Both the position numbers and the translations under genes were made by a program. From Hormiphora californensis (Eukaryota > Animalia > Ctenophora), in assembly GCA_020137815.1 (NCBI GenBank), contig CM035357.1:4278001-4342000 (forward strand): DNA of 64,000 nucleotides, in the 5' to 3' direction. Below, piece by piece: positions 54,401 to 60,400 of the stretch; position 1 is the first letter of the stretch, and each line of letters opens with the position of its first letter. The notes under the pieces are model-generated. The model ran no database searches, was not told the DNA's origin, and saw only the letters and a list, made by a program, of their open reading frames with translations.

Positions 54401-57400
54401 TCCTTAAAAAGCGGCATGTCTTACTTCGGTGTTACACATTATAGTTTCACAAGAGACTTCCTCTGTAGAAAGGCAGGCTATCCTCTCGGGGCGGAGGATT
54501 ATGGAGAAAACGGAAACAACCGGAATGAAAGCCTAGCAGAACCATTCAATGGACGACAATATGCGTTAGCCTATACAAACTGCTCAGTAGGTACAAAAGA
54601 TCTCTCTGAGTGTTCCGTGGGTTATAAACCCTTTACCCATACATATTACTGGGAGCTAGGGGAGGTACTGTTCTGCAGGACTAGCTCACCAACACCAGCA
54701 CCCACACCAGCGCACACACCAGCACCCACACCAGCACCCACACCAGCACCAGGGCCTTGGAACTCGACAATAACCATAGAAACGGGACACGGGTTAAATT
54801 CAACCAAAGGCACTGTCGTCCTCACAAACCAGCACACCCAGAAGAAAGGCCTGATATGTGGTAAAGACTTGGATCGACATTCTGCTGATATGGTTTGCAG
54901 GGCAGCGGGATTCCGGTTTGCAGAAGCGATTGCGATCAACTACGAGATTTCTCAAGACGACCGATTGGATTGCTCCTACGTCAGGGAGAATGGAATCCAG
55001 CCGATACTGACAAATGTAAGCTGCCCCCGTAACGCTTCCTCCCTTGACTCCTGCTCTACAAGCCCAGTTGATGGTGGAGTGTGTGATGCAGATAGTGGAC
55101 TACACTTGACCTGCACAGACGACATCTCTCCTTCCTCAGTGTGGGATCTAGTAGATATAGCTCTGGCCAGGAACCCAGGAGGAGGCCACATGCCGGAGAA
55201 TGTTGTTTGGAATGGAAACTTCGGGACAGCCATCGCAACCTTGCACAGCCGTGAGAATGGAACCTTCCTGACAGGTCTGGTACCTGTCAGTGCCATACAA
55301 GGGAGCCCCTACTGCAACACCCAGGCCATGTGCCGGTCCATCTTGGATACCTGGACCTCTACCTACTCCGATTACAGAAACATTGGGGAACTAGAGGAGA
55401 GTCACGGGAAAGGTCTCTCCTGTGGGTACATCATTGGTAACGATATCAACTTCCTGCCTGTAAGCCGTATAGACTGTGGTTGTGGAGCCGAGGTCACTAT
55501 TGAGAACTGCAGGGATATCGTGATTGCTCCAGACTTCCTCCAAAGTGACCCCAAGGAAGCACTCTGGATAAACTGCTATACAGGAAACAGAGATCAAGCA
55601 AATATTTAAATTTTTTAAATTATTTTGAAAGCATTTGATCCAAGTTTATTTGATTTGTTGGAAACAAAGTTACCACTGGTCAGTGACGGAAATAAAACAG
55701 ATAAACCATGGTACTCACTGTATCTCCCCCAGTACTCACTGTATCTCCCCAGTACTCACTGTATCTCCCCCAGTACTCACTGTATCTCCCCAGTACTCCA
55801 CGTATCTCCCCCAGTACTCACTGTATCTCCCCAGTACTCACTGTATCTCCCCCAGTACTCACTGTATCTCCCCAGTACTCACTGTATCTCCCCAGTACTC
55901 ACTGTATCTCCCCCAGTACTCACTGTATCTCCCCCAGTACCCACTGTATCTCCCCCAGTACTCACTGTATCTCCCCCAGTACTCACTGTATCTCCCCCAG
56001 TACTCAGTGTATCTCCCCAGTACTCAGTGTATCTCCCCCAGTACTCGCTGTATCTCCCCAGTACTCACTGTATCTCCCCCAGTACTCACTGTATCTCCCA
56101 GTACTCACTGTACTCCCCCAGTACTCACTGTATCTCCCCCAGTACTCAGTGTATCTCCCCCAGTACCCACTGTATCTTTAGACTGACGTATTATGCAACA
56201 CCACACACACACACACACACGCACGCCAGTTTTTGACAGTAGTTGACAAATACACGCACACACAAACTGCAAAGTGACACATCTAAAAATGTGTTCCGTT
56301 CCAACTACTGCTGCAAACCCCCCTGTATCTTTTTTAGCAATCTAAGATGAATTGCCCTTGATGGAGTGAATATTTGTTGAAGCTTGGTAACTACGAGGGG
56401 TAATTTCGTTACCAATGTTGATGCTAGCTATGTTCCAACCATCTGAAGCTTCTCAATATTTCTCAACCAATCTAAACCTAGTCTATACTTGTTGAATAAG
56501 TTTATTATAGCGGGGTCTTTGTGTGAACAAAAGGGCAGCTGCTATATGGAGGGCAGTAAAACTGCTCAGAGAACCCTCTCTCTAGCTGATCATGAGAGAG
56601 CTCTTTCACAAACTCATTAACACCTCCACCAACTGGGATCATAGCTACTTGTTGTTTTACTGCTGGGTAACAAGTTCTTTGTAACTCGTCAACAACCTCT
56701 TAACTCAATTTAACTTTGTAGTAACAATTATCTTTGATGCCGCACATATTTAATGTGATTTATATATGAAGTATGAACGTTTGTAGACTGGCGCGTTATG
56801 AAGTTGGCTGTTCCCAGCGCGAGCTGGGGACAGCCAACTGGAGTTTAATCGCGCCAGGGGCGATAAACTGGTTAAATCCCGACTCCGATCCCGAGGCGCC
56901 AGCCGAGGGTGAGGGGAGGTGATTTAAACCTATAACGCGATAGGCTAACAAACGTTCATATTTTATGAAACCCGATAGTAATTACACACAAATAAGAGAC
57001 ACAACACAAGGTGAAACACACTAGAACTGCTGGTAAATAGTCAACAGATACCCTGAAAATGTGTGTAGACTTGTGTCTACTGTTCCTAACATGTTTGAGA
57101 AAGAGAGAGAAAGATTAGGGGCAATACACACTGTCAGAGGTAATGAACAGTAAAAGAGACAATGAGAGAGAGAAATGAATGGAATGTGATTCTTTTCACT
57201 CCTTATGAGAGAGATAACATTGAAACGTGTTGCGACATGTTTCCCCTTTCTTTTGTTGACAGAACTGTGTGTTTACACACATTTTCAATACTTAGAATAT
57301 TACACGCATGTTATTCAAATGAAGAGAAACGCGTGAAAAAGGACACTGGCCTGATAATTCGCGAGCAGGGTGTTAAATCCCCCAGCTAGCAGTTATCATG

Positions 57401-60400
57401 AGCGCGCAAAATCTTCAAACGACTGATAAATCAACTATCGGGTTTCATAATATGTTAATACAATCCATTCAAAGCACATCATCATACTTCATACTACTTA
57501 CTAAGCAAATTGTGTAACGGAGGTCACCTAGCAACTACACTTGCACGTGCAATTATTAGAGGGACCTGGAGACCTCTCTCCCCGGTTGCAATTGAGTACC
57601 AGGGGAAATTCAATTCTGCACGTGCATTCTTTTACTTCTTGTCCTGATGTCTAGCTCTTCCACCCCAAGCGCTATTCGGCAACGTTTATCTAGTCAAGGA
57701 GAACTGCTGCTGTCAGGGAGCAGGCTAGAGAAATAATGACGATTACGCGAACGTGTTCAAGCGAGCCAATCAACGACTACGGATAGCTTTACCCAACGTC
57801 GCCCAAGGGTGATTACTCCAGTCAAATATAGAAATCTCCGAATCGGCTACATAGCGGCCAAGTTTTCATGTGATGAGTTTCTGGAACAGCAATGCACCTC
57901 CATGACATTGATCTCTTAAATTCGCTCCTTGACATTGTCAGGAAGCCCAGAGAGTACAACAACATGGGTAGGGAGAAAGTGAGAGATAGGCTAGGAACGG
58001 ATGGTGCATGCAATGTGATGTCAGCGTTCCCTTATCCAGCTACCATTTTCCCGAAATTAGCCCGTAGGGCGAACGGGCCTACTAGTATATACTATTACTT
58101 ATGTCACGTGACTGTTCTAACAGGTGTGCTCTGCCGACCTTACTTTGTTTTCTAACGCCCCTCGTCACATGACCAACCTTCCTTTGTTTTCTATTTTCTA
58201 CCTCCCTCGTCACATGCCCAACCTTCCTTTGTTTTCTATCTTCTAACCCACCCTGTCAGATGACCACATAAGCTCCTTATAAAAGCAAGGATGATATTAG
58301 TTACTCTAACTATTACTACGTGGCTGCAGAGTCTAACATCTGTCAAACCGTGGAGACAGGTACATGTTATGTAATACAGGGAGTGACAAATGTTAGCACG
58401 GGGAGGTCTCAAAAAAAAAAAAAAAAAGTTGCACTGCCTCAATGATGTCTTTAGATAGAGGGAGAGAGAAGTATTTCTCAGTTACCGTATGTGTGCTGCG
58501 TGTACTGCAGTGTAGTTCGGACACCCGAAGGGTTTCCGTGATTCAAAAAAATTATTTGGAGAGCCTTAGCGTGATAGAAGCCCCTAATAAGGGGGAGATA
58601 GCGCGTAAAGCCCCATTACCCAAGTTCGAAGTTATAGGCGTGACCAACAGAATTAATGTTTGTTTATAGTAGATTAGAATAGTAGATAAGAATGTTATGT
58701 GCAAACATGAATGTTTTTAGTTTTTACATGCACATTACTTAATAAAACTCTTTTCAGGCGATATCAGTGACCCAACTAAAGTTAAAATTCACCACTTGTA
58801 TGGAAGGAAGGGAGGTCGCAGCTAGGGATCCTTGGCTTCATCTATGTCCATGAAAAGAGGAAAAAAGCTATCAGACAGATGCGTCAGATACTGGTGAGTT
58901 GACAATAATTTGATGCTCCATTAATAGATATCATATTATGTTCATTGTTCGATTAAGGCTTCAAAACAATAATGCCATTTCTTTAACATGCAGTTTTATC
59001 CTTTCCCTAGCCCTTCTCCCAATCCTAATATTTACTATCTCCATCTCCCATTAGGTATGTCAGTAAATGTCATCTACACACTCATATTAAGACAGTAATT
59101 TAAGGGTTAAGAATGGCATTATCTCTAACTGCACCTACCACCTACTATAACAGTGGTATAACAGTGGTACAGTAACTGCAGTAGTTACCAGTCACTTGTA
59201 CTGCAACTCAAACACCCCCCCCCCCCGGGCCTCATGTGTTCTCCCTCTTTCTACCTCTAACTGTTGCACACTAGAACACTCATACAGTATTTGTAGTGCA
59301 GTGTTGTATTTAACACCTGCTGCAGTGGATACCAGTAATCGACATATAACACCTGATATATCAACAGACGATAAAATGTAGTGTGTGTCAATGTATACAT
59401 GTGTTTTCTGGCTGTGTTCCAGAGAGAGAAAGCTGTACAGAAATCGAATCAATGCAACACACCAGTCACCTGTAGTACTGCAACTCACCCCCCCCCCCCC
59501 ACCGGCCCCACGTCTTCTCCATTTCTCTCTTTCTCTTTCATCCTCTACAATTTCAGGGGGAACGCAACCTCATTCTGAAGAGACAGTTCATGGTTCCAAG
59601 TGCCTCCCCCCATCCATTCGGAAGTCCCAGGTCTTTGCGGAGCACTCCCCGGCTCTCCAGTCCGCGTACTTCTAAGGTAGGGAGCCGCGCGTATTGGATG
59701 GTGAAAGTACACAATTGTCATTGCGCGCAGTACACAAACTTTGTCATGCGCCCTTTGCGCGGGTATACATTTTATGTATAACTCGCGAAGATGTTGATAA
59801 GAGTGTAGTTTAATACCCATTTAAATTCCAGCAAGAGAGGATTAATTTGATGGTAGCTCGGACACCCCCTCAGAGCCCTCGAATCACCATAAACCTAACT
59901 AGTTCTCTAGACTCACAATCAGTAAGTATAGAGTGAGAGATACTATACACTGACACAGCACTTTTAAACCTATCCCTCCAACTCGGGCGCCCGATCTTGC
60001 TTTTCAGTAGTTCAGCCTGAGATGTTCACTGAACAAACAAACAAACAACCAAGAAAATAATAAGTTCAAATTACGGCATTAAGGTGTTTCAAGCCCCCCC
60101 CCCCCCCATTTTAGGACGATGGAAGATCCCCTCTGGGAAGTTGTGGATATGATAGTGAAGAGGAAGATGATTTTGATGAAATGGAACGTGAGTCTTGTTT
60201 GTTTGTTTGTTTGTTTGTTTGTTTGTCTGCTTGTTTGTTTGTTTGTTGTTTGTTTGTTTGTTTGTTTAGTTATTTGTTTGTTTGTTTGTTTATTTTTTAT
60301 TTGTTTGTTTGTTTAGTTATTTGTTTGTTTGTTTATTTTTTTAGTTATTTGTTTGTTTATTTGTTTGTTTGTTTATTTCTTTGTTTCTCTGTTCGAATGC

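Follow-up and report, generated by a model that had tools for sequence, protein, structure and literature searches.

A non-autonomous element family of a ctenophore with an internal mirror of its joined ends, a candidate Crypton-like transposon moving as a folded single strand

We have analyzed 64,000 nucleotides of the ctenophore Hormiphora californensis (GenBank assembly GCA_020137815.1, contig CM035357.1, positions 4,278,001 to 4,342,000 of the forward strand), a stretch called here the window, which contains two copies of a mobile element whose ends both pair with an internal site. Copy 1, of subfamily 1, lies at 56767-57449 (on the + strand, as all its parts and those of copy 2), measures 683 bp and has no coding capacity that we could find, the longest ATG-started frame being of 75 aa and without Pfam match. 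On the left it adjoins a TATA (56763-56766), whose ATA is the 3-nt overlap with the right end of the element. The element starts with a 5-nt leader, TGAAG (56767-56771), and continues with arm A (56772-56799, perfect at 56772-56784 and with an imperfect extension up to 56799), a head with three hairpins, arm A' (56932-56960, perfect part 56948-56960), a spacer of 3 nt (56961-56963) and arm B' (56964-56979). The right end is arm B (57434-57449), with ATA (57447-57449) as its last letters. Pairing is complete, 13/13 bp between A (56772-56784) and A' (56948-56960) and 16/16 bp between B' (56964-56979) and B (57434-57449), A' and B' being adjacent halves of one internal site separated by the spacer. 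The spacer is TTT in copy 1, GTT in many copies and GGT in copy 2, and position 56961 changes from T to G in 35-67% of the contig depth. The best inverted match between the first and the last 190 nt is of only 7-8 nt, that is, the ends have no long inverted repeats. A preliminary description of this DNA had reported that the ends are not inverted repeats of each other and that each pairs with one half of an internal site, and both observations hold. A 12-nt inverted match at 57482-57493 was considered as a terminal inverted repeat (TIR) and rejected, because it falls within the 5' end of a Helitron-like insert distinct from the element. The element has no 3' hairpin, and A' is ~490 nt away from its 3' end.

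The second copy (subfamily 2, 4527-5184, 658 bp) is full-length by nhmmer and adjoins at its left end a target TATA at 4523-4526. The layout is the same with other letters: the leader is TGAGG, A (4532-4546) pairs with A' (4705-4719) over 15/15 bp, B' (4723-4735) pairs with B (5172-5184) over 13/13 bp, and the spacer (4720-4722) is again of 3 nt. The identity to copy 1 is 78% in the head and 56% in the interior. These two, 56767-57449 and 4527-5184, are the full-length members detected by nhmmer in the window, where neither nhmmer nor a scan for the design found a third member of the family, so that the three elements counted before are reduced to two. The design scan gave 8 matches at one setting (0-2 in 10 control runs) and, in a looser version, 6 candidates at another setting (0-1 in 8 control runs), two of them belonging to this family. 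The other matches were neighbouring hairpins or nested repeats, apart from a candidate at 45716-46644 that consists of a hairpin (45729-45797), a TA, an arm (45800-45811) pairing with 46569-46580 and then a similar second hairpin. Possibly it represents another family with the same kind of junction-mirror layout, and perhaps it is the third element meant in the preliminary description.

The ends of the element were delimited with alleles in which it is missing. The empty allele of copy 1 joins 56763 to 57447, skipping exactly 683 bp with three letters that fit either side, and from this joint the overlap is ATA (56764-56766 / 57447-57449) and the element 683 bp long. It was found in all three organism-A runs examined (X1, X4 and X5, three samples from two studies, one of which may be the window's own source) and was not seen in the fourth run examined, a viral metagenome. 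One X4 contig stops exactly at 57449, and the contig depth climbs sharply at both edges of copy 1. In the case of copy 2, the flanks are joined with a single TATA in X4, in an allele slightly unlike the window flanks; the joint was present in one of two organism-A runs, and a contig in X5 is likely a second example. Two further insertions (X15 record 3 and X5 record 25) match up to the same TATA and then diverge. Hence the end overlap is of 3 nt (ATA) in copy 1 and 4 nt (TATA) in copy 2, and at the two sites having empty alleles the ends are not fuzzy and no variable duplications are seen. In the empty alleles the host sequence is intact, and the TGARG leader is kept in the element and absent from the target sites. 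An overlap of ATATG had been proposed from a paralogous element-free site at 53605-53620 (+ strand), which proved to be diverged: compared with the true empty allele it has 3 nt less and several other indels, one of ~105 bp ending beside the site. The ~105 bp in question (56650-56755), absent from the paralog, end just left of copy 1. Both halves of the internal site are present in both copies, the empty allele lacks the unit in its entirety and contigs span the A'-B' site, which argues against two independent miniature inverted-repeat transposable elements (MITEs) lying side by side.

Both subfamilies are clearly very abundant in the sequencing runs. The summed contig depth, which is not a copy number, was 195-1,493 in the bin adjoining copy 1 on the left vs ~10,800-608,000 inside, and 174-1,594 in the unique flanks of copy 2 vs ~227,000-1,530,000 inside. 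In X13 and X15, which come from small-share runs (marine/viral metagenomes, organisms B and C), the depth on the element was 2-7. As to RNA, no run was listed as containing the element, and in run X22 only the flanking microsatellite of copy 2 was covered. The sites of both copies are polymorphic among individuals, and the family is therefore probably young enough for an intact partner to exist. We are thus dealing with a real, young and abundant family, non-autonomous and with exact ends, whose insertions follow TATA directly and overlap with it by ATA only. Some records matching 56930-57042 (X1 record 2, X4 record 16 and X5 record 26) correspond to a diverged low-depth variant that has the internal site and is then unlike copy 1; a longer or autonomous relative is a possible explanation. 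In X15 record 4, a subfamily-1 copy is apparently inserted in a subfamily-2 element near window position 5082.

When the two ends of copy 1 were joined in silico, the junction paired with the interior at -32.3 kcal/mol, precisely at the A'-B' site, vs -10.8 +/- 1.6 kcal/mol for shuffled interiors, none of which (0/300) reached the real value. The junction of copy 2 gave -27.9 kcal/mol (shuffled -10.4, 0/300 reaching it). The joined ends read B-TGARG-A and the internal site A'-KKT-B', so that the two mirror each other imperfectly, with TGAAG opposite TTT forming a 5 x 3 loop at the crossover, alike in both copies. The five leader bases, mostly unpaired against the 3-nt spacer and predicted to be the central loop of the folded site, are conserved between subfamilies and yet are not encoded by the spacer, which is variable. 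Because of this imperfection the internal site cannot template the ends as the internal complementary region (ICR) of DIRS elements does. The idea that the internal site is the reverse complement of the joined ends thus stands for the arms and fails at the crossover, and an exact, DIRS-style copy of the junction is not supported.

The predicted fold of the stretch between A and A' is in both copies a long stem from whose top three hairpins branch off, giving a four-way junction with a DNA mini-hairpin as its cap. In copy 1 the first hairpin (56802-56839) has 17 bp, with other letters in copy 2, the second is at 56842-56869 and the third at 56870-56930. The tip of the third is GCGNNAGC, a DNA mini-hairpin (56896-56903) of the motif class described in (PMC13037366), and GCGNAGC at 4658-4664 in copy 2. 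The letters of the arms differ between the copies and pairing stays perfect (13/13 and 16/16 vs 15/15 and 13/13). In the head, 6 of the 43 shared predicted pairs have changed on both sides, one of the six being probably misaligned, and 3/43 on one side. These compensatory changes of the arms support a folded intermediate, the part of the earlier proposal of a folded or circular form that gains from our analysis; the circle was not observed in contigs. The canonical cap, GCGN(N)AGC, is present on the + strand only, which folds 8-10 kcal/mol better than the - strand. According to (PMC13037366), such caps are far stabler in DNA than in RNA and occur at phage single-strand origins. The cap points to folded DNA and not to an enzyme class.

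We searched the window for the enzyme in a set of 172 open reading frames (ORFs), stop-to-stop frames of at least 75 aa from which low-complexity ones had been removed beforehand. None of the 172 matched a tyrosine-recombinase or HUH family in Pfam, in agreement with the suggestion that the family is non-autonomous and its enzyme is encoded outside the window. The Pfam matches were RVT_1, MULE, two SRCR and DDE_Tnp_4. No long copy with these ends was found in the metagenome, viral and prokaryote collections scanned, and Rfam gave 6 matches at E up to 5, none near the gathering score. Motif scans aimed at relatives produced 25 loci in metagenomes that have the motif only, L005 alone with a long hairpin and no B' partner downstream; 0, 18, 0, at least 124, 22 and 6 loci in viral contigs; and 49 in prokaryote genomes. 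Among 71 of these loci (49 prokaryote and 22 viral) there was no family member at nhmmer E < 0.01. One locus, L086, was considered as a relative and rejected as unrelated. No joint of the end to the start of the element, as expected of a circle, appeared among the contigs of 6 runs, which is uninformative since contigs drop rare forms. The sole long joint that goes back (in X15) can be read as a copy of subfamily 1 lying inside an element of subfamily 2.

Following the cap motif we came upon an unrelated family of similar design among IMG/VR sequences, where three records sharing a taxon id (L027/L039, L028 and L042/L043) contain 6 left ends. These elements are of 0.9-1.1 kb. On their left side stands a long hairpin, capped as in the ctenophore family; they carry a mirror in the interior and a right end that matches it, and show no duplication of fixed length. 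In one copy the top of the hairpin is deleted. L042/L043 contains at 3464-5451 two units head-to-tail, whose natural junction pairs with the mirror as a long stem bulged at the joint. From this natural junction, the joined form exists in DNA for the mirror design. The 29 ORFs of L005, L027, L028, L039 and L043 gave no relevant Pfam match, so that no enzyme was found for this family either, and L005 has the hairpin only.

As to its surroundings, the window is rich in microsatellites and palindromic repeats, including long near-perfect foldback repeats at 2244-2886, 10020-11030, 19036-19375, 27062-27540, 46694-47900 and 61886-62869. A MULE transposase (51714-52670, - strand), a reverse transcriptase of a long interspersed nuclear element (31852-33927, + strand) and a DDE_Tnp_4 fragment (27951-28193, - strand) were also located. 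Two intronless SRCR-domain genes form an inverted duplication (49766-51302 and 54152-55743, 93-95% identical), the + copy having its 5' part (53829-54191) in another frame. The intronless SRCR gene at 54152-55606 had 3 relatives at E <= 1e-10 among 7,993 candidates scored, the best two being proteins of Pleurobrachia bachei (56-62% identity), consistent with a ctenophore host. At 57479-58085 there is a Helitron-like non-autonomous insert, between A and T, with 5' TC, a 3' hairpin and CTAG; it has high contig depth over the part examined and is absent from the paralog near 53641.

On balance we favor, by a little, the view that the element is a non-autonomous Crypton-like transposon, served by a tyrosine recombinase, that moves as a folded single strand by an exchange similar to that of integrons. 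Once a strand is exposed, A:A' and B':B would pair, so that the internal site holds the two ends next to each other. A single exchange of strands at ATA| would then free the element as a single-stranded circle, while the donor strand is sealed again. Within this circle the internal mirror would pair with the joined ends into a duplex of ~30 bp that has two boxes for binding and leaves a 5 x 3 loop unpaired, resembling a folded attC site. An autonomous relative would supply the recombinase that exchanges one strand with TATA as target, and replication would complete the insertion. Excerpts of the published papers served for all the comparisons that follow, and the literature compared also includes (PMC6681497), (PMC13465315) and (PMC5753468). 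The folded attC sites of integrons recombine by one strand exchange that is resolved by replication (PMC2727003), and they are alike in the predicted folded strand, two paired boxes, unpaired central loop, variable branched top and single crossover at the box edge. In contrast, here we have a dispersed eukaryotic element in which the site forms only once the ends join and for which no attI or integrase is known, so the comparison is one of mechanism and not of membership. A single crossover within ATA/TATA at the edge of a box, together with intact host sequence, would fit a single strand exchange, and the imperfect mirror at the crossover is what could be expected of the unpaired central spacer of attC rather than of a template.

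The Crypton side of this view comes from animal CryptonA elements and their non-autonomous derivatives (Kojima and Jurka, 2011; PMC3212892). They resemble the ctenophore family in having no long TIRs or long direct repeats, a short A+T-rich motif at both ends and abundant gene-less copies of 350-700 bp, and a circle was proposed for them. A short motif shared by both ends, one copy of it corresponding to the target, would be the Crypton pattern (PMC3212892, PMC13565253). They differ in the overlap, of 3-4 nt here, in that no recombinase has been tied to the comb-jelly family, and in that the excerpts of (PMC3212892) describe neither an internal mirror of the joined ends nor a four-way hairpin head for Cryptons.

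Several observations weigh against our preferred view. Cryptons are given an overlap of 4-6 nt, longer than the 3-4 nt observed, and, as far as (PMC3212892) covers them, terminal repeats are not found in those of animals; the observed overlap equals the trinucleotide rule of DIRS (PMC7192593). No recombinase gene linked to these element ends was found in the window. The covariation involves two sequences only. Regarding the strand, the bias is weak: a looser cap pattern gives one shifted match on the minus strand of copy 2, the z-score of the whole element is better on the minus strand (-12.1 vs -10.8), and the L043 junction folds equally on both strands. The cap is not diagnostic either: the motif gave 171 matches at 167 loci, with a long hairpin only at L005 and in the one-taxon family; it also occurs in bacterial repeated palindromes; the 5' hairpins of FoHeli Helitron2 have a GAA loop too (PMC5148889); and one low-depth contig (X15 record 5) has an A-rich loop in its place. 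Finally, the IMG/VR elements form an unrelated family, and homology to the comb-jelly family would be by design and cap only. Regarding the palindromes, L182, L187, L195, L198 and L216 belong to one bacterial genome with repeated long palindromes built of several cap mini-hairpins. As background, the bacterial SE elements form strand-biased circles through tyrosine recombinases, and nothing resembling the structure of attC was detected at the sites involved, according to the excerpts of (PMC9345347).

A single-strand element of the HUH (Y1/Rep) type, of the IS200/IS605 peel-and-paste or Replitron kind, which would be nicked at ATA| on either end and inserted 3' of TATA with the folded strand as a guide, is an unlikely alternative. 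The absence of TIRs, the fixed adjoining tetranucleotide, the hairpins and the short direct repeats all fit (PMC10288648, PMC13565253), and the cap motif is found as well in bacterial repeated palindromes and Helitron2 ends. More generally, IS200/IS605, Replitrons and Helitron2/Helentron (PMC13565253, PMC10288648, PMC5148889) have in common with our element the lack of a target-site duplication, a target adjoining the end, DNA hairpins and single-strand intermediates, and the short terminal direct repeat or adjacent target without TIR that characterizes Replitrons and IS200/IS605 is present here. Such families, however, use small terminal hairpins, and a 30-bp internal mirror of both ends is not among the features described in those excerpts. 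Neither of the sites with empty alleles has fuzzy ends or variable duplications, and the ctenophore element lacks both a 3' hairpin and the asymmetric TIR located 20-40 bp from the 3' end. Its target is TATA and not TT, and we no longer retain the Helentron-like class suggested before.

Slightly less probable is a non-autonomous DIRS-type retroelement, reduced to the ICR and the trinucleotide ends, that is copied through RNA and integrates as a double-stranded circle. DIRS-1 has, like the ctenophore element, an internal stretch complementary to both ends, near one of them, and a trinucleotide at both ends that matches the target (PMC7192593), here ATA. However, its ICR is exact and templates the ends according to the same source, whereas here five junction bases oppose three non-complementary ones in both copies. 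Besides, the ctenophore element has no long terminal inverted repeats and no reverse transcriptase or recombinase gene, and the cap favors DNA over RNA.

To the same low degree we credit movement of a Crypton derivative in the form of an ordinary double-stranded circle, where the mirror is a second recombinase site (e.g., for dimer resolution) and the hairpins only bind protein. This corresponds to the published Crypton model (PMC13565253), B-spacer-A can be read as two inverted boxes with a spacer, and a head-to-tail tandem is present in the IMG/VR family. Against it, two strand exchanges need a spacer matching the target, yet the targets do not contain TGARG and the host sequence remains intact; besides, binding sites in double-stranded form hardly explain why pairing over a long range is kept by compensatory changes. 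If single-strand and double-stranded-circle movement are taken together, mobilization by a Crypton becomes fairly probable. Finally, the element could be a MITE of the DDE type that has very short TIRs and duplicates ATA (3 bp), the paralog then being the site before insertion and the empty allele of copy 1 a footprint left by excision. Such a MITE would account for the ATA that follows copy 1, the one ATA fewer in the paralog than in the empty allele and the TATGAA/TTCATA common to the ends, but it is very improbable, as it needs a different end geometry for each copy (TCT follows arm B of copy 2, whose empty allele has one TATA), one X4 contig stops at 57449 and not at 57452, the paralog has diverged by several indels, neither copy has TIRs together with a fixed-length duplication on both sides, and the mirror is left unexplained.

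According to a 2026 review, Crypton transposition is without experimental proof and the model assumes a double-stranded circle (PMC13565253); folded single-strand movement is not yet shown for the class. Among the matches listed in our search, we found no published account of a eukaryotic DNA-only element with a junction mirror, although the Repbase/Dfam entries, the Kojima 2019 review and the Eulor/Crypton end-alignment figures were outside the search and may describe one. As a broader and tentative proposal, to which we would not give the status of probable, tyrosine-recombinase transposons of animals, from comb jellies to other phyla, may move as folded single-stranded DNA circles in which the mirror splints the ends and builds an attC-like site, the mini-hairpin cap doubling as a priming signal for the second strand. 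If the family is mobilized by a Crypton, it would provide a sharp alternative to the double-stranded circle model together with defined substrates: exact ends known from empty alleles, TATA as target, a loop at the crossover and two stems of which compensatory variants occur in nature. If movement as a folded circle is true, it would represent a eukaryotic single-strand recombinase pathway with a 3-nt target. The host being a ctenophore, the mirror design is present in one of the earliest-branching animal lineages.

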